This document shows, piece by piece, positions 2,198-55,030 of a stretch of 64,000 nucleotides of DNA. Made by a program: the position numbers and the translations under genes. Under the pieces are notes generated by a model. That model worked only from the letters and a program-made list of their open reading frames with translations. It made no database searches and was not told the DNA's origin. Each line of letters starts with the position of its first letter. Positions within the stretch are counted from its first letter, which is position 1. This stretch comes from Tequatrovirus BCH953P4: the sequence record OZ035789.1. One strand, 5' to 3'.

Positions 2198-2914
2198 ATG
2201 AATTATAAACTAATTTATGAAAAGTTAATCTCTAATGCTAAATCTCGAAAACTTGATTGCTATACTGAATCTCATCACATTATACCACGCTGTTTAAATG
2301 GCAGCGATGATGCTTCAAACTTAGTAGATTTAACACCAGAAGAGCACTATGTAGCTCATCAACTTTTAGTAAAAATTTATCCTTCTGAACCAAAATTAGT
2401 ATATGCTGCTAACATGATGACAGTTTCCACGAAATACGCTAAACGCAACAATAAAACTTTCGGTTGGATTCGTCGTAAACTCTGGGAAATAGAAAAGAAC
2501 AAAGAATTCTCCCAGGAGACACGAAAGAAAATGTCTGATGCAGTAGCTAATAAAGCAAGACTAACTTGTCCTCATTGCGGTAAGTCTGGATTAAGCGGGA
2601 ATATGAATCGTTGGCATTTTGATAACTGCCCAAATCACCCTAATCCTAAAGTTAGACCACCAATGTCTAAAGAACACAGAAATAATATCTCAAACGGGCT
2701 TAAAGCAATCGTTCTTGAAGAAACATCTTGCGAATTCTGCGGAATGATAGGCAAGAAATGCGTTATCGCAGCGCATAGAAATTTCTGCAAGAAAAATCCA
2801 AATGGACGCAAGAAAACTGAAAAGACTGGTACTTGCGTCCATTGTGGTAAAGTTACCACTTTCGGAAATTTATCAAGATGGCATAATGATAACTGTAAAT
2901 ATAAACCTAGCTAA
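2198..2914 (+). CDS. HNH homing endonuclease, mob family, 238 aa, with three tandem Cys-rich zinc-finger-like repeats
   Basis: HHIIPRCLNGSDDASNLVDLTPEEHYVAH motif nearly identical to the mobB-like ORF at 7496-8290; repeats CPHCGK...WHFDNC, CEFCGM...HRNFC, CVHCGK...WHNDNC; opposite strand to flanking early genes. Confidence 0.8.
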   Translation: MNYKLIYEKLISNAKSRKLDCYTESHHIIPRCLNGSDDASNLVDLTPEEHYVAHQLLVKIYPSEPKLVYAANMMTVSTKYAKRNNKTFGWIRRKLWEIEKNKEFSQETRKKMSDAVANKARLTCPHCGKSGLSGNMNRWHFDNCPNHPNPKVRPPMSKEHRNNISNGLKAIVLEETSCEFCGMIGKKCVIAAHRNFCKKNPNGRKKTEKTGTCVHCGKVTTFGNLSRWHNDNCKYKPS

Positions 2915-4595
2915 TCTTAGCTAAACTAAATCTACCAACTTTTTCCATCTGAATATGCTGACCATATTCTTGTGGGTCATGGTCTTTATGCGAAATTATG
3001 AAGAAGTTGGTATCCTTCAAACCATCTAAAATTTTAGCTACATTTTTAATACCTTCAGCATCAAATGCACCGTCATACACTTCATCAAGAAATAAACAAC
3101 TTATTTTAACACCTGAAACTTTTTCAGCAATATCACGCCAAGTAAATAAAAGAGCAATATCAATTCGTGCTTTTTCACCTTGACTGAATGAAGCATAACT
3201 AAAATCTTCACGACCACGGGATTTAATTGTCTCATTAAATTCTTCATCTAATGTAAACACATAATCCGCTTCCATTATTTTAAGATAATGGTTAATCTGC
3301 TTATTAAATAATGGAATGTACTTTTTAATAATAGCACCTTTAATACCAGAATCTTTGAGCATATCAGTCAAAATTCCTCGGTGGTATTTTTCCATTACTA
3401 AATTAGTTTTTGTCTTAACAATTTTATCAAGTTCTTCTTGAAGCAGTGCTATTTCATCAGCATGGTCAATAAACTCAGAAGATGCTTTTTCTATAGCCGC
3501 TTTAACCTTTTTAGCTTTATCTACTGCTGCGATCAAAGATTGCTTTTTATTGCGAATATCATTTGCCAACGACTGTTGGGTTTTAATATTATCTCGGTAT
3601 TCATCAACAAGAACTTTTAAATTATCACGATGTGTTGAAAGCTGTTCAAACGAATGCGTACATTCAGAAACTTTATCTTTAATTTTAGAAACAACTTTAT
3701 CACCGGAACTCAATTGTGACAAACAGGTTGGACATAATCCACCTTCGTGATACATATTAATGACTTTATTATACGAGTCAATTTTTGATTTAATTAAAAA
3801 TGCTTCTTGACCGATTTTATTAAATGCATCAGTTGGGTCTTCGTCTAAAACAATATTAACTAATCTTTCATTAGCTTCTTCTATTTCCGATTTTAGCGTT
3901 CTAGCTTCTTTTGCCAAATCATCATACATATTTTGCAGACGAGTAAGGTTGTCACCCGTTAATTTTTTCTGGCGTTCAACGTTATCATTATATATTTTAA
4001 TTTGTTGGATAATACTATCTTTTTTAACATCAAGCACTTGGTTCTGCGAATTTAATTCGCGTATTAGTGCTTTATTAAGCTTATCCATTTCAGCTAATGT
4101 TCCTACCTCAAGCAGGTCTTCCACAAGCTTTCTTCGCGCAGGGGTCGACAAACCCATGAAAGGGGTATACCCTGCTGTACCAAGGACAACAATCTGCTTG
4201 AAACTGGCATATGACATTCCGATAAGCTGTTCAAATTCTGCTTGGAAATCTTTACTGCTGGCAGATTCATTAAGACGTGTACCGTTAACGGTGATTTCGA
4301 AAACGTTTGGTTTTTGTCCTCTTTTGATATAGTACTTTTTCTCATCATATTCCATCCACAGTTCAACTAAAAGTTCTTTCTTATTTGTGCTGTTTATTAA
4401 TTGACCTTTCTTTACATCACGAAATGGCTTGCCAAAAAGCCCAAACGTGATGGCTTCTAGCATAGTAGACTTACCACCGCCATTTCGTCCAGTAATAAGA
4501 GTTTTTTGAACCTTATCTAATTGAATGTCAATCCCATTTTGACCAACTGACATTATATTTTTATATTTTACTCTATTAAGTTTAAAATTCTTCAC
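2907..4595 (-). CDS. 46: Recombination nuclease ATPase subunit gp46 (Rad50/SbcC-like), 562 aa, GTG start
   Basis: Walker A GRNGGGKST near N-terminus, long coiled-coil middle, CPTC zinc hook-like motif; AAGGAA Shine-Dalgarno before GTG; size matches T4 gp46. Confidence 0.9.
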   Translation of the reverse strand: MKNFKLNRVKYKNIMSVGQNGIDIQLDKVQKTLITGRNGGGKSTMLEAITFGLFGKPFRDVKKGQLINSTNKKELLVELWMEYDEKKYYIKRGQKPNVFEITVNGTRLNESASSKDFQAEFEQLIGMSYASFKQIVVLGTAGYTPFMGLSTPARRKLVEDLLEVGTLAEMDKLNKALIRELNSQNQVLDVKKDSIIQQIKIYNDNVERQKKLTGDNLTRLQNMYDDLAKEARTLKSEIEEANERLVNIVLDEDPTDAFNKIGQEAFLIKSKIDSYNKVINMYHEGGLCPTCLSQLSSGDKVVSKIKDKVSECTHSFEQLSTHRDNLKVLVDEYRDNIKTQQSLANDIRNKKQSLIAAVDKAKKVKAAIEKASSEFIDHADEIALLQEELDKIVKTKTNLVMEKYHRGILTDMLKDSGIKGAIIKKYIPLFNKQINHYLKIMEADYVFTLDEEFNETIKSRGREDFSYASFSQGEKARIDIALLFTWRDIAEKVSGVKISCLFLDEVYDGAFDAEGIKNVAKILDGLKDTNFFIISHKDHDPQEYGQHIQMEKVGRFSLAKIS

Positions 4596-33617: not shown

Positions 33618-34091
33618 TTATTTGAATGATTTAACGTACTGAATAGAACCTTTACTATTCACAAAGGCAATTTTACCATTTTTGTTATACATGGTAGCAG
33701 TACGCTGATAGCCATAAGTTTGTTTACCAGATTGATAACCAACTAATGCAAAATTATCTTCACCCATTTTATTCTGTTTAGCGCGAATGCGTTCATGACC
33801 ATGTGCCATAAGAACCTTAGCATCACCAGTTGCAATGGATCTACGAGTTTTTTCATCTTCAACTGTATTAACAAAGTCGTCAAATGAATCAAATTTAGCA
33901 TGAGATTTATTATACAGTTTTCCATCTACTGCATAATTATATCCCTGTACATCCATCTCAACTTCTGTACCATCATCCAATACAGCAGTGATTTTTTGAC
34001 CTTTTTTAAATTTCAAAAGATCAGTAAAAGATTCAGCAATAATTTGAGAATTAATAGCTGCTTCAGTGATAAATTCTTGATATGTTTTCAT
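33618..34091 (-). CDS. Internal protein (IP family), 157 aa, with capsid-targeting leader
   Basis: N-terminus MKTYQEFITEA matches the conserved IP capsid-targeting sequence cleaved after Glu by the prohead protease. Confidence 0.6.
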   Translation of the reverse strand: MKTYQEFITEAAINSQIIAESFTDLLKFKKGQKITAVLDDGTEVEMDVQGYNYAVDGKLYNKSHAKFDSFDDFVNTVEDEKTRRSIATGDAKVLMAHGHERIRAKQNKMGEDNFALVGYQSGKQTYGYQRTATMYNKNGKIAFVNSKGSIQYVKSFK

Positions 34092-37788: not shown

Positions 37789-38052
37789 TTATTTCATATT
37801 ATTGAAATATTCTTCTGCGATTTCGTCGTTATCATGGTAAACTTTAGAAGACAGTTTAACATAACTTTCAGCAGTGAACATGTTAATCACAACCTTTACA
37901 GTATACCACTGACCATCTTCATTACCCATTACTGCGTAAGTTTCAAACATCGGATGATCAGGACCGATAACTTTAATATCATTCACTGTACGACCAAAAT
38001 CTTCTGAAACACATTTCATAAAGAAGTTGAACAGTTCGCCGTAATTATCCAT
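37789..38052 (-). CDS. Hypothetical protein, about 88 aa, start refined to MDNYGELF
   Basis: ORF-track start lies inside the promoter -10 region; internal ATG preceded by GGAGAA. Confidence 0.45.
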   Translation of the reverse strand: MDNYGELFNFFMKCVSEDFGRTVNDIKVIGPDHPMFETYAVMGNEDGQWYTVKVVINMFTAESYVKLSSKVYHDNDEIAEEYFNNMK

Positions 38053-38096: not shown

Positions 38097-38126
38097 ATAG
38101 TACCATGGAAGAATAGGGATGTAAAC
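38097..38126 (-). promoter_or_regulatory. Early promoter: -35 GTTTACA, 17-nt spacer, -10 TGgTACTAT
   Basis: Read on the minus strand; AT-rich upstream tract. Confidence 0.5.
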
Positions 38127-38236: not shown

Positions 38237-38252
38237 AGGCCCGGAAAGGCCT
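38237..38252 (-). terminator. Second GC-rich hairpin downstream of the IP gene (AGGCC…GGCCU)
   Basis: 5-bp GC stem; no U-tract, so function uncertain. Confidence 0.3.
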
Positions 38253-38263
38253 AGATACCAAAA

Positions 38264-38287
38264 AGCCCCGACCAAAAGGTTGGGGCT
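38264..38287 (-). terminator. Rho-independent terminator after the IP gene: AGCCCCAACC-UUUU-GGUCGGGGCU plus U-tract
   Basis: Hairpin followed by UUUUUGG on the minus transcript; near-identical in sequence to the hairpin at 38823-38846. Confidence 0.55.
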
Positions 38288-38294
38288 AAGAATG

Positions 38295-38768
38295 TTATTT
38301 GATTTGTTTAGCAGACCAAATGCGGTCTTTAATAATTTTTTGGATGTCTTCAACATACTCAAGAGAGTGAACATGTGGGTTATCTTTGAAACTATAAGCA
38401 CGAGCTAGCTTTTGGCCTTCAGTTTTGATTACTAAAAGCTCTTTAAGGATAGCTTCATATTTGGAGATAATTCCTTTAACAATATTTTTCTCTTGTGTAG
38501 CTTTAGGATCTGCTTTAGGAGCAGGTTTACCTGAAGCCTTTGCAAAAGCAGCTCCAGTAGCAACTAAACTTTTCCAGGCCATACTAACTGCATTTCCCGT
38601 AAATCCTTCCGCTTTCATGTCGCGTGCGAACTGGAATCGCGATTCATCAGAAGCATCTTTATAAGAATATTTACCCGCTGCAATGGCTGCTTTTGCGACA
38701 GCTTGAATTTCGGTGCTAGATGCTTCATTTAACACCGCTTCATTTAAAAATTGAGTATATGATTTCAT
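38295..38768 (-). CDS. Internal protein (IP family), 157 aa, with capsid-targeting leader
   Basis: N-terminus MKSYTQFLNEA resembles the IP capsid-targeting sequence; Ala/Lys-rich body. Confidence 0.55.
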   Translation of the reverse strand: MKSYTQFLNEAVLNEASSTEIQAVAKAAIAAGKYSYKDASDESRFQFARDMKAEGFTGNAVSMAWKSLVATGAAFAKASGKPAPKADPKATQEKNIVKGIISKYEAILKELLVIKTEGQKLARAYSFKDNPHVHSLEYVEDIQKIIKDRIWSAKQIK

Positions 38769-38808
38769 CTTATTTCCTGTTTTAATTCGTGGATTTAATA
38801 TACTACTA

Positions 38809-38816
38809 TATTTATA
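38809..38816 (-). promoter_or_regulatory. Late promoter TATAAATA upstream of the IP gene
   Basis: Exact TATAAATA on the minus strand about 40 nt upstream of the ATG at 38768. Confidence 0.5.
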
Positions 38817-38822
38817 CCAAAA

Positions 38823-38846
38823 AGCCCCAACCTTTCGGTCGGGGCT
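38823..38846 (-). terminator. Rho-independent terminator closing the tRNA/stable-RNA transcription unit: AGCCCCGACC-GAAA-GGUUGGGGCU plus U-tract
   Basis: 10-bp stem (one G-U pair) followed by UUUUGG on the minus transcript. Confidence 0.6.
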
Positions 38847-38851
38847 AAGCC

Positions 38852-39160
38852 TTGCGGCAACCTTGTCGAGGTTCCACCTGCTAAGGCAAGTGTTTGTACG
38901 AAACGCCGGGACTTGAACCCGGTTATTAAGTAGTTGACGCTACTCAATATTTTTAAAAGGCCATATCTCGACCATATCCGAACGTTCCGTCAAAAACGCT
39001 ACTCGGCTTACGGCAAAGATATTTCCTCGAATCGATAATTCGGTGCGCCGTTTCTGCTGTGATGTAAGAGGGCATTAGCAGATCGTAAAGATTTGTTAAT
39101 GCCAGTCCTTAAACAGGGAACATCAGTCCGACGACTTACCGGTAGCGACCCGGTTTCTTG
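38852..39160 (-). ncRNA. Region likely encoding small stable RNAs (T4 RNA C/D-like) downstream of tRNA-Arg; boundaries unresolved
   Basis: No protein-sized ORF; contains a tRNA-like T-arm (CCGGGTTCAAGTCCCGG) and several stems; T4 has two stable RNAs at this position. Confidence 0.3.
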
Positions 39161-39162
39161 TC

Positions 39163-39239
<77 letters not shown>

Positions 39240-39242
39240 TAG

Positions 39243-39908
39243 TTAAAATTTCATTTTTCGACCTTTAAACCATCCTTCTGGAATTGGGTCAGTTTTCTTA
39301 ATACGTTTAGAAACTTTTTCATCTAATGAATGAATCCACATCATACCAAATTGGGAATTCTTTTCACCTTGTTGGTGTTTATTTCTGGCGTGAGATTCTT
39401 TCATTTTATTAATAGTTTCAGGAGTATGGGTCTTACCCAAGAAAGATTTAGTATTTAAAAATTTCTCTCTATACTTAGGATTATCCCAAAACTGTTTAAA
39501 CCTTTCTGAACCCATTTTACGATATTTTTCTTTAAGGTCTGGGTCGTTCTCAAATCTGGTTTTAAAAGCGGCAGCTCCTTTTAAGGAAGCTTCTTTCTTT
39601 TTATCCAAATATTCTTTAGTGTTTAAATGGTCCCAACCACCTTCACCACCTAATTTCAAATTATAAACATCAGAGCGCTTTAAAAACTCTTCAGTCACAA
39701 TATTCTTTTCTGACTCAAACATAGAGGTTTTATCGTCAAAGAACTCTAATATTTCTTTAGAAAAATTTTCTATACCATACTTATCTTGGGCTCTTTTTAA
39801 TAATTTACCAGAACCCATATATCCATCATCTAAATTTTCGGTAGAATGAGCGCCTATATAGATTTTATTATTAATTTTATTTGTTATTTTATAAGTGTAA
39901 TGGAACAT
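39243..39908 (-). CDS. segB: GIY-YIG homing endonuclease SegB, 221 aa
   Basis: Canonical GIY-YIG N-terminus YKITNKINNKIYIGAHS; located inside the tRNA cluster as in T4. Confidence 0.85.
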   Translation of the reverse strand: MFHYTYKITNKINNKIYIGAHSTENLDDGYMGSGKLLKRAQDKYGIENFSKEILEFFDDKTSMFESEKNIVTEEFLKRSDVYNLKLGGEGGWDHLNTKEYLDKKKEASLKGAAAFKTRFENDPDLKEKYRKMGSERFKQFWDNPKYREKFLNTKSFLGKTHTPETINKMKESHARNKHQQGEKNSQFGMMWIHSLDEKVSKRIKKTDPIPEGWFKGRKMKF

Positions 39909-39949: not shown

Positions 39950-40021
39950 TGGCCCTGGGTGGAATTGAACCACCATCTGGCGATTATGAGTCGCTTGCTT
40001 GAACCTTCCAGCTACAGGGCC
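39950..40021 (-). tRNA. tRNA-Ile (anticodon CAU, presumably modified to read AUA), CCA not encoded
   Basis: Acceptor GGCCCTG/CAGGGCC, anticodon loop CTCATAA, T-loop TTCAATT. Confidence 0.75.
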
Positions 40022-40027
40022 TTGATA

Positions 40028-40100
40028 TGCTGATTGACGGAATCGAACCGCCGACATCCTCATTACAAGTGAGGTGCTCTACCTACTGAGCTAAATCAGC
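40028..40100 (-). tRNA. tRNA-Thr (anticodon UGU), CCA not encoded
   Basis: Acceptor GCTGATT/AATCAGC, D-arm GCTCAGTAGGTAGAGC, anticodon loop CTTGTAA, T-loop TTCGATT. Confidence 0.8.
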
Positions 40101-40107
40101 GAAATTA

Positions 40108-40194
40108 CGGAGGCGATAGGATTTGAACCTATGAGTCGCCGGAGCGACTGCCGGTTTTCAAGACCGGTGCATTAAACCACTCTGCCACGCCTCC
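40108..40194 (-). tRNA. tRNA-Ser (anticodon UGA), class II long variable arm, CCA not encoded
   Basis: Acceptor GGAGGCG/CGCCTCC, anticodon loop CTTGAAA, long variable arm, T-loop TTCAAAT. Confidence 0.8.
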
Positions 40195-40196
40195 AG

Positions 40197-40270
40197 TCTC
40201 CGCGGCAGGATTTGAACCTGCGACATTCTGCTCCCAAAGCAGACGCTCTACCAAACTGAGCTACACGGAG
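40197..40270 (-). tRNA. tRNA-Pro (anticodon UGG), CCA not encoded
   Basis: Acceptor CTCCGTG/CGCGGAG, D-arm GCTCAGTTTGGTAGAGC, anticodon loop TTTGGGA. Confidence 0.8.
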
Positions 40271-40282
40271 TAAATTAAATTT

Positions 40283-40354
<72 letters not shown>

Positions 40355-40360
40355 AAACTT

Positions 40361-40447
40361 TGGTACGAGAAGTGGGACTCGAACCCACAAGGAAATCATT
40401 CCGCAGCATTTTAAGTGCTGTGCCTTTACCAATTTGACCATTCTCGC
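40361..40447 (-). tRNA. tRNA-Leu (anticodon UAA), class II long variable arm, CCA encoded
   Basis: Acceptor GCGAGAA/TTCTCGT, anticodon loop CTTAAAA, long variable arm, T-arm GTGGG-TTCGAGT-CCCAC, 3' ACCA. Confidence 0.8.
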
Positions 40448-40448
40448 G

Positions 40449-40521
40449 CTGGGAATAAAGGACTCGAACCTTTGCATCTAGCAGTCAAAGTGCTATGCCT
40501 TACCAACTTGGCTAATTCCCA
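40449..40521 (-). tRNA. tRNA-Gln (anticodon UUG), CCA not encoded
   Basis: Acceptor TGGGAAT/ATTCCCA, D-arm GCCAAGTTGGTAAGGC, anticodon loop CTTTGAC, T-loop TTCGAGT. Confidence 0.8.
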
Positions 40522-41800: not shown

Positions 41801-41986
41801 CTATTCACCTTTAGAAATTTTATCCATAACGATAGCAATTAAACCAATTAAAAATGCTACTACAAGTGAAAAAACATTTTCTGCTGTAGTCAATAATCCG
41901 CATATAAATCCAACAAACATTGAAAAACTAAAAGCGGAAGCAGAAATTGCAATAGCAACATTTCGAATTAATTCACAACGTTTCAT
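41801..41986 (-). CDS. Small membrane protein, 61 aa
   Basis: ORF track; ATG start downstream of an early promoter; hydrophobic. Confidence 0.45.
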   Translation of the reverse strand: MKRCELIRNVAIAISASAFSFSMFVGFICGLLTTAENVFSLVVAFLIGLIAIVMDKISKGE

Positions 41987-42014
41987 TTTATTCTCCTCAG
42001 TAGTTGATAGGGTA

Positions 42015-42044
42015 ATAGTATCACTACCCTATCTAAAAGTAAAC
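42015..42044 (-). promoter_or_regulatory. Early promoter: -35 GTTTACT, 17-nt spacer, -10 TACTAT
   Basis: Read on the minus strand upstream of ORF 41801-41986. Confidence 0.5.
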
Positions 42045-42278
42045 TTATTTTTTACGAAAAATTGATTTATTTTCTGCTGCCCATTTTTCAATAACTGCAG
42101 CCGGACCAGTAACAACAATTTTATCACCGTAATCTTCTGCGGCGAGTTGACCGAAATTATCTAATGCATCACGAAGAACTCCATGAGGCATTTCACCCAT
42201 TTTATCTTTCTTGCCAGTGTAAATAAACTCAACTTTTACATCAGAAGATTCAGCGATAAATTCTTTAAACGTTTTCAT
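42045..42278 (-). CDS. Internal-protein-like small protein, 77 aa, with capsid-targeting leader (ipI position)
   Basis: N-terminus MKTFKEFIAES matches the IP capsid-targeting pattern; lies just downstream of 57B. Confidence 0.55.
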   Translation of the reverse strand: MKTFKEFIAESSDVKVEFIYTGKKDKMGEMPHGVLRDALDNFGQLAAEDYGDKIVVTGPAAVIEKWAAENKSIFRKK

Positions 42279-42308
42279 TTTATTTTCCTAATTAATTTTG
42301 ATGAGATA

Positions 42309-42338
42309 ATAGTATCACTACCTCATCAGCATGTAAAC
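42309..42338 (-). promoter_or_regulatory. Early promoter: -35 GTTTACA, 17-nt spacer, -10 TACTAT
   Basis: Read on the minus strand upstream of the IP-like gene. Confidence 0.5.
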
Positions 42339-46374: not shown

Positions 46375-48085
46375 TAACCTTAATTGGTTTGTTGGTGTTG
46401 TTGAAGATAGAATGGACCCATTAAAATTAGGTCGTGTTCGTGTTCGTGTGGTTGGTCTGCATCCACCTCAAAGAGCACAAGGTGATGTAATGGGTATTCC
46501 AACTGAAAAATTACCATGGATGTCAGTTATTCAACCTATAACTTCTGCAGCAATGTCTGGAATTGGAGGTTCTGTTACTGGACCGGTAGAAGGAACTAAA
46601 GTTTATGGTCATTTTTTAGACAAATGGAAAACTAACGGAATTGTCCTTGGCACGTATGGTGGAATAGTTCGCGAAAAACCGAATAGACTTGAAGGATTTT
46701 CTGACCCAACTGGGCAGTATCCTAGACGTTTAGGAAATGATACTAACGTACTAAACCAAGGCGGAGAAGTAGGATATGATTCGTCTTCTAATATTATCCA
46801 AGATAGTAACTTAGACACCGCAATAAATCCCGATGATAGACCACTATCAGAGATTCCAACCGATGATAATCCAAATATGTCAATGGCTGACATGCTTCGC
46901 CGTGATGAAGGATTAAGATTAAAAGTTTATTGGGATACCGAAGGATATCCGACAATTGGTATTGGTCATCTTATCATGAAGCAGCCAGTTCGTGATATGG
47001 CTCAAATTAATAAAGTTTTATCGAAACAAGTTGGTCGTGAAATTACAGGAAATCCAGGTTCTATTACAATGGAAGAGGCGACGACTTTATTTGAGCGTGA
47101 TTTGGCTGATATGCAACGTGACATTAAATCACATTCTAAAGTAGGACCAGTCTGGCAAGCTGTCAACCGTTCTCGTCAAATGGCGTTAGAAAATATGGCA
47201 TTTCAAATGGGTGTTGGCGGTGTAGCTAAATTTAACACAATGTTAACTGCTATGTTAGCAGGAGATTGGGAAAAAGCATATAAAGCCGGTCGTGATTCAT
47301 TGTGGTATCAACAAACAAAAGGCCGTGCATCCCGTGTTACTATGATTATTCTTACGGGAAATTTGGAATCATATGGTGTTGAAGTGAAAACCCCAGCTAG
47401 GTCTCTATCAGCAATGGCTGCTACTATAGCTAAATCTTCTGACCCTGCTGATCCTCCTATTCCAAATGACTCGAGAATTTTATTCAAAGAACCAGTTTCT
47501 TCATATAAAGGTGAATATCCTTATGTGCATACAATGGAAACTGAAAGCGGACATATTCAGGAATTTGATGATACCCCTGGGCAAGAACGATATAGATTAG
47601 TTCATCCAACTGGAACTTATGAAGAAGTATCACCGTCAGGAAGAAGAACAAGAAAAACTGTTGATAATTTGTATGATATAACCAACGCTGATGGTAATTT
47701 TTTGGTAGCCGGTGATAAAAAGACTAACGTCGGTGGTTCAGAAATTTATTATAACATGGATAATCGTCTTCACCAGATAGATGGAAGCAATACAATATTT
47801 GTGCGCGGCGATGAAACTAAGACGGTTGAAGGTAATGGAACTATCCTAGTTAAAGGTAATGTTACCATTGTAGTTGAAGGTAATGCTGACATTACAGTTA
47901 AAGGAGATGCTACCACTTTAGTTGAAGGAAATCAAACTAATACAGTAAATGGAAATCTTTCTTGGAAAGTTGCTGGGACAGTTGATTGGGACGTTGGTGG
48001 TGATTGGACAGAAAAAATGGCATCTATGAGTTCTATTTCATCTGGTCAATACACAATTGATGGATCGAGGATTGACATTGGCTAA
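46358..48085 (+). CDS. 5: Baseplate central spike gp5 with lysozyme domain, 575 aa
   Basis: Internal lysozyme domain (…MLRRDEGLRLKVYWDTEGYPTIGIGHL…) similar to gene e; C-terminal VxGxxxxx beta-helix repeats. Confidence 0.95.
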   Translation: MEMISNNLNWFVGVVEDRMDPLKLGRVRVRVVGLHPPQRAQGDVMGIPTEKLPWMSVIQPITSAAMSGIGGSVTGPVEGTKVYGHFLDKWKTNGIVLGTYGGIVREKPNRLEGFSDPTGQYPRRLGNDTNVLNQGGEVGYDSSSNIIQDSNLDTAINPDDRPLSEIPTDDNPNMSMADMLRRDEGLRLKVYWDTEGYPTIGIGHLIMKQPVRDMAQINKVLSKQVGREITGNPGSITMEEATTLFERDLADMQRDIKSHSKVGPVWQAVNRSRQMALENMAFQMGVGGVAKFNTMLTAMLAGDWEKAYKAGRDSLWYQQTKGRASRVTMIILTGNLESYGVEVKTPARSLSAMAATIAKSSDPADPPIPNDSRILFKEPVSSYKGEYPYVHTMETESGHIQEFDDTPGQERYRLVHPTGTYEEVSPSGRRTRKTVDNLYDITNADGNFLVAGDKKTNVGGSEIYYNMDNRLHQIDGSNTIFVRGDETKTVEGNGTILVKGNVTIVVEGNADITVKGDATTLVEGNQTNTVNGNLSWKVAGTVDWDVGGDWTEKMASMSSISSGQYTIDGSRIDIG

Positions 48086-54991: not shown

Positions 54992-54996
54992 ATTAA

Positions 54997-55014
54997 GGGA
55001 GCCCATGGGCTCCC
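54997..55014 (+). terminator. Rho-independent terminator after gene 8 (GGGAGCC-CAUG-GGCUCCC plus UUUUU)
   Basis: 7-bp GC stem followed by TTTTTC on the plus strand. Confidence 0.6.
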
Positions 55015-55022
55015 TTTTTCTT

Positions 55023-55030
55023 TATAAATA
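55023..55030 (+). promoter_or_regulatory. Late promoter TATAAATA for gene 9
   Basis: Exact TATAAATA about 24 nt upstream of the gene 9 ATG; AAGGAAA Shine-Dalgarno. Confidence 0.6.

Follow-up and report, generated by a model that had tools for sequence, protein, structure and literature searches.

PeSLs, as described by Krisch and colleagues, combine a terminator stem-loop with an early promoter, and PmSLs are the version with a middle promoter (Arbiol et al. 2010, PMC2839356; Comeau et al. 2014, PMC4122927). Both mediate insertions/deletions (indels) and gene replacements, and excised mini-circles were demonstrated (PMC2839356, PMC4122927). Analogous early-promoter elements at two internal protein (IP) loci are credited, in the passages of these two papers that mention them, to Repoila et al. 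1994, and 'two Ip loci' are attributed to the T-even phages in PMC12373910. The locus analyzed here lies in a stretch of 64,000 nucleotides (nt) from Tequatrovirus BCH953P4 (record OZ035789.1), hereafter the window, in which a gene for a protein of 157 amino acids (aa), called gene A, sits between the small stable RNA gene rnaC and gene e.8, bracketed by two copies of a 36-nt terminator repeat. No description of this rnaC-e.8 cassette locus was found in the literature searched. The kind of shuffling is already known from PeSLs and the IP loci; new are the undescribed locus, the joint made of a terminator and a late promoter, and the locus-specific repeat. We consider it likely that the slot holds self-contained late modules bounded by duplicated terminators and shuffled by homologous or unequal recombination between the copies, with a product that would be packaged, cleaved and injected.

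Reading along the minus strand, the order is tRNA cluster, segB-like gene, tRNA-Arg, rnaD, rnaC, first hairpin, gene A, second hairpin, e.8. The elements of the slot and its borders are the following:

38897-39035, minus strand: rnaC-like small stable RNA, last gene of the tRNA/rnaD/rnaC unit, its ends aligned by eye to the annotated rnaC of T4 (NC_000866 70908-71046).
38814-38849, minus strand: upstream copy of the 36-nt repeat, CTT AGCCCCGACC GAAA GGTTGGGGCT TTTTTGGTAT, followed by AAATA.
38846-38823, minus strand: upstream hairpin, AGCCCCGACC GAAA GGTTGGGGCT, followed by the T-run and GGTAT.
38809-38816, minus strand: T4-type late promoter TATAAATA, labelled as such in the SA20RB record.
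38773-38778, minus strand: Shine-Dalgarno (SD) sequence AGGAAA, 4 nt ahead of the ATG, read from the sequence.
38295-38768, minus strand: gene A, 157 aa, leader MKSYTQFLNE/AVLNE/A, PHROG 2280, predicted all-helical.
38255-38290, minus strand: downstream copy of the 36-nt repeat, CTT AGCCCCAACC TTTT GGTCGGGGCT TTTTTGGTAT, followed by CTAGGCC.
38287-38264, minus strand: downstream hairpin in flipped orientation, with an A.C mismatch, AGCCCCAACC TTTT GGTCGGGGCT, followed by the T-run and GGTAT.
38097-38125, minus strand: early-promoter-like site for e.8 (TTTACA, 17 nt, TACTAT with TG), an early promoter in the annotation of SA20RB.
37789-38052, minus strand: e.8 homologue, 87 aa from MDNYGELF, conserved gene at the border of the slot.

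A first-pass annotation of the window had described an IP gene between two near-identical terminator hairpins and had read the arrangement as a sign of cassette exchange. Gene (38295-38768), hairpins (38823-38846 and 38264-38287) and the exact TATAAATA into which the upstream copy directly runs (38816-38809) all lie where it had put them.

The repeat is made up of CTT, a 24-nt GC-rich hairpin and TTTTTGGTAT. In the upstream copy, 10 pairs (7 G-C) close a GAAA loop and lead into UUUUU; this copy folds at -20.3 kcal/mol (z = -4.8) and is the top-ranked terminator-like site in the scan; the downstream copy has the same terminator design except for one A.C mismatch and folds at -16.2 kcal/mol (z = -3.3). 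Both have the features of intrinsic terminators, and are predicted to serve the tRNA/rnaC unit, the 3' end of rnaC being 51 nt away from the upstream hairpin, and gene A, respectively. An Rfam scan returned eight tRNAs only, with no family for the hairpins, rnaC or rnaD. A degenerate pattern for the hairpin hits exactly two sites in the 64-kb window, and none in 100 shuffles. When complete Tequatrovirus genomes were searched by BLAST with the 36-mer, one place per genome was found if the slot is empty or holds a second gene (gene B, see below) only, and two if gene A is present, all at the rnaC-e.8 locus. The exception is LF82-9, where the 36-mer scored at four places, two copies being inspected at the rnaC-e.8 locus. 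The pair is thus conserved in hundreds of genomes, and further copies of the motif, whose existence the first-pass annotation had left open, do not occur elsewhere in the genome: the 36-nt repeat is local, not a dispersed mobile motif. Scans of IMG/VR were set aside: the exact 15-mer GGGGCTTTTTGGTAT hit 85 stretches, nearly all unrelated, and the degenerate hairpin at least 120, which were generic terminators from unrelated phages and uninformative on copy number, so that the 36-mer search took its place. T4-type genomes carrying e.8 number just about 10 in IMG/VR.

A second composite of terminator hairpin and late promoter, GGGAGCCCATGGGCTCCC TTTTTCTT TATAAATA, is found at 54995-55030 on the plus strand of the window. 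It is not duplicated around a gene, and indicates that the layout of hairpin, T-run and TATAAATA is used elsewhere in the late region.

Set against PeSLs and PmSLs, the locus shares four traits. A predicted terminator stem-loop stands immediately before a promoter, hairpin and T-run leading into TATAAATA; the copies flank small non-essential open reading frames (ORFs), each transcriptionally insulated; where close relatives differ by an indel or a replacement, the boundaries coincide with the copies; and the mechanism proposed is the same, homologous recombination between nearby copies. Four other traits differ. The promoter is an exact late TATAAATA, of which the first three bases (TAT) come from the repeat and AAATA from the cassette, and not an early sigma70-like or a MotA-dependent middle promoter; the term 'late promoter' does not occur in the text of PMC2839356. 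The downstream copy lacks an adjacent promoter, the early-promoter-like site of e.8 following after a spacer of ~130 nt. The repeated part is a strong terminator with its T-run, rather than a promoter with an SD sequence. Finally, one to three copies reside at one locus, whereas PeSLs and PmSLs number dozens across hyperplastic regions.

The content of the slot was monitored in relatives of the window, which belongs to Tequatrovirus (786 phage records matching, the best ones ~96.5% identical over 1.8 kb); L-numbers are our handles for loci in relatives. No gene lies between e.8 and rnaC in T4, and the hairpin is single. The left flank of this empty site is the rnaC-side junction of the window, the right flank (GGTATCTA(A/G)GCCTTTCC...) the e.8-side junction. 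RB10 and PST have the same empty structure, the upstream hairpin being the sole copy in all three phages; T2 and RB9 also have one copy of the 36-nt repeat. Gene A is alone in the window, SA20RB, Kha5h, L004 and phiC600P9; in L005, Tequatrovirus-type flanks enclose an A allele that has diverged (153-154 aa, about 75% identical), and in the Mosigvirus APCEc01 a 154-aa A allele lies between two hairpins. Gene B is alone in FL44, follows A in tandem in sb4, L006 and L013, and follows a further A variant, A'', in L007. The Dhakavirus JS98 carries a 184-aa protein (PHROG 2143) with no capsid-targeting sequence (CTS), then a 205-aa CTS protein, with hairpin, T-run and TATAAATA ahead of each. Different genes hence occupy the same repeat-bounded slot, and cassette exchange, as suggested by the first-pass annotation, is supported by the whole range of contents (empty, A, divergent A, B, A+B, the 184-aa and 205-aa genes of JS98), the junctions being at the hairpin and T-run each time.

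Gene A, counted once per record and at all identities, was found in 510 records (385 at 80% identity or more), gene B in 165. The junction A-hairpin-B occurs in 128 records, the junction between A, hairpin and e.8 flank in 277; a synthetic empty-site query was covered in one joined place in 389 records, and a sample of 29 such places comprised 20 A-only, 4 B-only and 5 empty sites. Junction, gene and empty-site queries combined give estimates, not exact tallies: 260-280 records are A-only, about 128 A+B, 35-55 B-only and 55-90 empty. Gene A resides in the slot at every locus inspected and once per genome in the 510 records, and neither unrelated flanks nor a repeat present by chance, which the first-pass annotation would have counted against exchange, were seen. 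The same annotation had called the gene hypervariable, which does not hold for gene A itself, mostly 95-99% identical within Tequatrovirus, and does hold for the content of the slot and for the wider family.

The slots of Mosigvirus and Dhakavirus are filled as well and have the same boundary, seen in Mosigvirus as TTTTGGTATCTAGG following the final hairpin. This makes occupancy the probable ancestral condition, and the empty state of T4 a derived deletion. In Dhakavirus-type genomes (JS98, our L222, coding strand 2668-3327; L010; L012) all slot hairpins have the stem AGGCCC...GGGCCT in place of the Tequatrovirus AGCCCC...GGGGCT, a compensatory change from C-G to G-C found in every copy within a genome. 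This suggests homogenization by gene conversion, or transfer of whole modules with their hairpins. LF82-9 (L223, 3004-3591), classified as Mosigvirus, has a gene A and hairpins of Tequatrovirus type; its rnaC flank is that of SA20RB (0 differences), which points to transfer of the whole region between genera.

The edges of the exchanged segments were located by comparing L005 and L007 with the window. The rnaC flank is 96-100% identical; identity drops to 46-86% straight after the upstream hairpin, and is again 94-100% from the last ~50-100 nt of the gene through the downstream hairpin. FL44 joins rnaC, hairpin and B by GGGGCTTTTTAGTTTgaatcac, a sequence that L006 repeats without change, and sb4 and L013 nearly so, at the junction A-hairpin-B. 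The same junction with B being found after rnaC or after A, module A is delimited by the hairpin repeat whatever comes next. In JS98 the junction of hairpin, T-run and TATAAATA recurs between modules, also around the non-CTS 184-aa gene. Empty sites do not share one history. The rnaC flank of the empty RB10 shows 2 differences from the filled Kha5h and 10 from T4; that of T4 is nearest to the filled SA20RB (5 differences), the e.8 flank of T4 to L005 and the B-carrying genomes. Empty sites thus have different flank haplotypes, each closer to filled genomes, which argues for more than one event.

Gene A has the exact TATAAATA 40 nt ahead of its ATG, as would fit late expression of an IP. Its leader, MKSYTQFLNE, keeps Y4, F7, L/I8 and E10 of the CTS of T4 IPII and IPIII (MKTYQEFIAE); experiments have assigned targeting to CTS residues 4 and 7, and processing to residues 8 and 10 (PMC9026906). 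The cleavage motif of gp21, L/I-x-E, can be read as LNE at residues 8-10 and again at 13-15. From leader and late promoter, the gene A product is likely an internal protein. The label 'IP gene' given by the first-pass annotation agrees with these two features and is an interpretation, the database entries that were read saying 'hypothetical protein': in the 216-member cluster of protein A this holds for every named entry read, none being annotated as internal protein. Among PHROGs, protein A matches only PHROG 2280 ('unknown function', 1.8e-60), and no family or domain was found in Pfam. The AlphaFold model is all-helical and of moderate confidence by pLDDT (73.5), with a pTM of 0.40; a Foldseek search of BFVD and PDB returned one orthologue and otherwise nothing at E < 1. 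As there is no informative structural neighbour, no biochemical function is assigned to protein A. No virion proteome listing it was found in the literature.

Gene B encodes a 187-aa protein starting with MKTYAEFLTE, preceded by the late-like promoter AATAAATA; its terminator, ATCCCTATC TAAAT GATAGGGCT followed by TTTTTGGTAT, differs from that of A. A and B, when directly compared, share the 11-residue leader only. Yet A, B and the 205-aa protein of JS98 (C) all match PHROG 2280, and C is 29% identical to A (E = 3e-10) and 28% identical to B (E = 1e-5). Judged by these matches, the three are very divergent members of one uncharacterized family. The family is confined to T4-type phages, has ~85 conserved N-terminal residues and a replaceable C-terminal half, and its conserved leader is of the T4 capsid-targeting type, with a gp21 cleavage motif in each of the three proteins.

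The two repeat copies of the window are not simply divergent. The flanks are in direct orientation, and direct identity is 30/36; the 24-nt core of one copy is, at 23/24 positions, the reverse complement of the other. The near-identical direct repeats of the first-pass annotation are therefore direct in their flanks and inverted in their core. The swapped A/G and C/U positions that it reported are present, and result, together with the GAAA and TTTT loops, from inversion in place of the 24-bp hairpin core rather than from point divergence of direct repeats. The comparison with phiD1 shows the flip: over 106 nt spanning the downstream copy exactly six differences separate it from the window, all in the core, and jointly they turn AGCCCCGACCAAAAGGTTGGGGCT into its reverse complement. 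Matches of 99% or more to the downstream-copy region of the window, flipped form included, were found in 11 of 566 records, most records being near 94%; the flipped form thus looks rare and derived. In the RNA, the flip costs the change of a G.U pair to the A.C mismatch, about 3 kcal/mol. The gene A terminator of KAW1E185 (L225, 35-58) reads AGCCCCAACC TTTC GGTTGGGGCT, the reverse complement of a GAAA-loop form, and the loop of the gene B terminator is ATTTA in L007 (3766-3788), TAAAT elsewhere. Counting the TTTT, TTTC and ATTTA forms, palindromes of the locus have flipped in place at least three times.

Small inversions associated with hairpins, or loop 'flip-flop', occur in non-coding hairpins, for example in chloroplast DNA. 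As there, inversion in place affects the loop and any asymmetric positions of the stem but leaves the palindrome itself as it was, and the events are recurrent and apparently neutral. The hairpins of the slot differ in being predicted phage transcription terminators that would double as recombination joints.

The observations can be accommodated as follows. The interval would be a self-contained late module, made up of late promoter, ribosome-binding site, ORF with a CTS leader and intrinsic terminator; it lies past the terminator that closes the tRNA/rnaD/rnaC unit and ahead of the e.8 early promoter. The module ends in a terminator that duplicates the one of rnaC, so that a 36-nt direct repeat stands on either side of the gene; it may work at two levels. 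As RNA, judging from sequence and fold, the hairpins would insulate the module transcriptionally. As DNA, the repeat would be a short, portable homology for the general recombination machinery of the phage; T4 recombination needs less than 50 bp of homology (Singer 1982, as cited in PMC2839356). Misaligned copies in a single genome, or in two relatives infecting the same cell, would cross over and thereby delete the module, leaving a T4-type empty site, replace the allele, or stack modules in tandem. A single unequal crossover at the hairpins of an A-type and a B-type genome would produce A+B plus an empty site. The protein most likely enters the prohead by means of its leader, is cut by gp21 after LNE, and is then injected; an anti-defence role, by analogy with Ip1-3, is speculative.

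Several points weigh against shuffling at the terminator repeats. Every step proposed, from termination and late-promoter use to packaging and recombination, is drawn from comparison of genomes. With one PHROG and weak pairwise similarity, tandem copies could stem from old duplication and divergence, not from cassette capture. Because B ends in a different hairpin, its gain or loss needs recombination over only about 9-14 nt (GGGCTTTTTxGTxT), a microhomology and not the 36-nt repeat. The right-hand breakpoint of identity in L005 falls within the last ~50-100 nt of the gene, not strictly at the hairpin. Lastly, the adjacent segB-type homing endonuclease could drive regional co-conversion independently of the repeats. 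It is placed upstream of rnaC:

39950-40521, minus strand: tRNA cluster.
39243-39908, minus strand: segB-like GIY-YIG gene.
39163-39239, minus strand: tRNA-Arg.

The repeat may, in principle, be a by-product of tandem duplication of gene plus terminator in fast-evolving paralogues and play no special part in exchange, the polymorphism coming from ordinary deletions and vertical divergence. Common membership in PHROG 2280 of A, B and the 205-aa protein of JS98, with identities of 29% (A-C) and 28% (B-C), and the frequency of tandem A+B (128 records), fit such a history. We regard it nonetheless as unlikely, as the upstream copy is part of the rnaC unit rather than of a paralogue, and is present in genomes without the cassette; T4, RB10 and PST retain precisely one repeat copy at the deletion junction; allele replacement starts at the upstream hairpin and stops at the 3' end of the gene; at least two different flank haplotypes are found among empty sites; and an unrelated 184-aa gene (PHROG 2143) has the same module format in JS98.

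The hairpins may alternatively be substrates of a structure- or site-specific process, such as endonuclease VII cutting at cruciforms, or mini-circles integrating by an attC reaction as in integrons, and not a passive homology. The junctions are precise, three or more in-place flips show that the DNA palindromes are themselves reactive, and the possibility of a targeted recombinase for GGGG...CCCC stem-loops was brought up by Arbiol et al. Such a process is improbable, since no recombinase gene is found among the ORFs of the neighbourhood, the motif is limited to the rnaC-e.8 locus, and each cassette brings a promoter with it, as integron cassettes do not; the general recombination of T4 is enough, and the flips can also be explained by strand switching in replication. 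An integron-type array was also considered as such, and rejected because each module has its own late promoter and is not promoterless; no integrase-like ORF was noticed at 36-44 kb, where no systematic search was made. A transposon with target-site duplication was rejected too, the insert consisting of promoter, SD sequence and a 157-aa ORF only; a 36-nt duplication equal to a functional terminator is not of the kind left by target-site duplication.

Homing of the segB-type endonuclease, with co-conversion, might account for presence and absence of the modules and make the repeats incidental, the segB-like gene being 400 bp away and the adjacent tRNA region itself polymorphic among relatives. 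The ends of co-conversion tracts are variable and would not land precisely on a 36-nt repeat, and segB and slot vary independently: T4 and PST have segB and an empty slot, the window has segB and a filled slot, Kha5h and sb4 lack segB and are filled, RB10 lacks segB and is empty. Homing as the cause is thus very improbable. That the two hairpins are independent GC-rich terminators, alike by chance or convergence, is effectively refuted: terminators of the AGCCCC...GGGGCTTTTT type are common in unrelated phages (at least 120 IMG/VR stretches match the degenerate pattern), but the likeness reaches the non-pairing flanks (CTT, TTTTTGGTAT), 100 shuffles gave 0 matches, the hairpin pair is conserved in hundreds of genomes, and the T4 empty site has exactly one copy.

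Shuffling of late modules at terminator copies recalls the polymorphic IP loci, where genes with a conserved leader also vary in number, order and identity, and are bracketed by conserved regulatory repeats. The location is different: ipI and ipII-ipIII lie in T4 at 73.6 kb and 65.4-66.4 kb, and the rnaC-e.8 site of T4 is empty. So is the bracket, in which a strong terminator and a late promoter take the place of the T4 early promoter and its weak, AT-rich stem-loop. Protein A resembles T4 IPI, IPII and IPIII in the CTS-type leader, the L-x-E motif, the late promoter and the small size, and in being non-essential (the gene is absent from T4). No homology to these proteins was detected beyond the leader, and PHROG 2280, unlike the characterized IPs, has no IP annotation in the records read.

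Two genes annotated as internal virion proteins provide a comparison within the window. The first, of ipI type (42045-42278, minus strand; 77 aa, MKTFKEFIAE, PHROG 8111 'internal virion protein'), is bracketed by a direct repeat of ~41 nt (42004-42044 and 42298-42338) holding a T4 early promoter (GTTTAC...GTAGTGATACTAT) inside a stem-loop. The SD region is repeated too (41981-42005 and 42273-42297). This bracket is a classical IP cassette of the Repoila/PeSL-like kind. Its downstream stem (GATAGGG/CCCTATC) has the same 7-mers as the stem of the gene B terminator. Across the 64 kb, regulatory direct-repeat brackets surround two genes only, the ipI-type gene and gene A. The second IP gene (33618-34091, minus strand; 157 aa, MKTYQEFITE, DUF7412 / PHROG 3155 'internal virion protein') directly follows denV and has neither a promoter nor a hairpin of its own, the order being e - denV - IP in the window and e - ipIII - ipII - denV in T4. 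Bracketing by hairpins as a general trait of IP genes was rejected on account of this gene.

A broader interpretation is possible, and is offered tentatively. The slot between rnaC and e.8 may be a third, unrecognized IP locus of the Tevenvirinae, overlooked because empty in T4; PHROG 2280 proteins would be packaged through the CTS, processed by gp21 and injected against host defences, for example GmrSD/type IV variants, and the terminator hairpins would be trading joints that also flip in place.

The neighbourhood from the tRNAs to rnaC is mosaic throughout. The segB-like gene divides the tRNA cluster of the window, as it does in T4; Kha5h and sb4 have tRNA-Asn and tRNA-Tyr at its position. 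An additional 116-aa ORF (MKGNVYLVVHDL...) is found between tRNA-Arg and rnaD in Kha5h, L005 and L006. On the other side, the early-promoter-like region of e.8 is the conserved right-hand flank of the slot. It is shortened in phiC600P9 (L227, ~250-290), where a deletion of ~32 nt just downstream of the cassette has removed the -35 region of the e.8 early promoter; the odd slot span of this phage was considered as a variant cassette, and is due to this deletion. Unrelated to the locus, six tandem 24-nt (8-codon) repeats (GTTGAAGGTAATG...) lie within a coding region at 47801-47968 on the plus strand of the window, and would fit a beta-helix repeat of the kind found in the gp5 needle.

The locus is a clean and tractable natural system for the study of repeat-mediated shuffling in T4-type phages: four states are on hand, the slot being empty or holding A, B or A+B, the joint is a defined 36 nt, and sequenced genomes number in the hundreds. 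It also carries the PeSL idea, which concerned early and middle promoters, over to a joint of terminator and late promoter. For annotation, modules of this kind can be recognized as a hairpin with T-run and TATAAATA, followed by an ORF starting with MK(S/T)Y..F(L/I).E. T4 Ip1, Ip2 and Ip3 each inhibit a different GmrSD type IV restriction enzyme (PMC12373910), which makes other proteins with the same leader obvious candidates for injected counter-defence factors. Genes A and B reside in most sequenced Tequatroviruses, where they are annotated as 'hypothetical', and the main value of the finding is that it points to an unannotated family of probable injected proteins.

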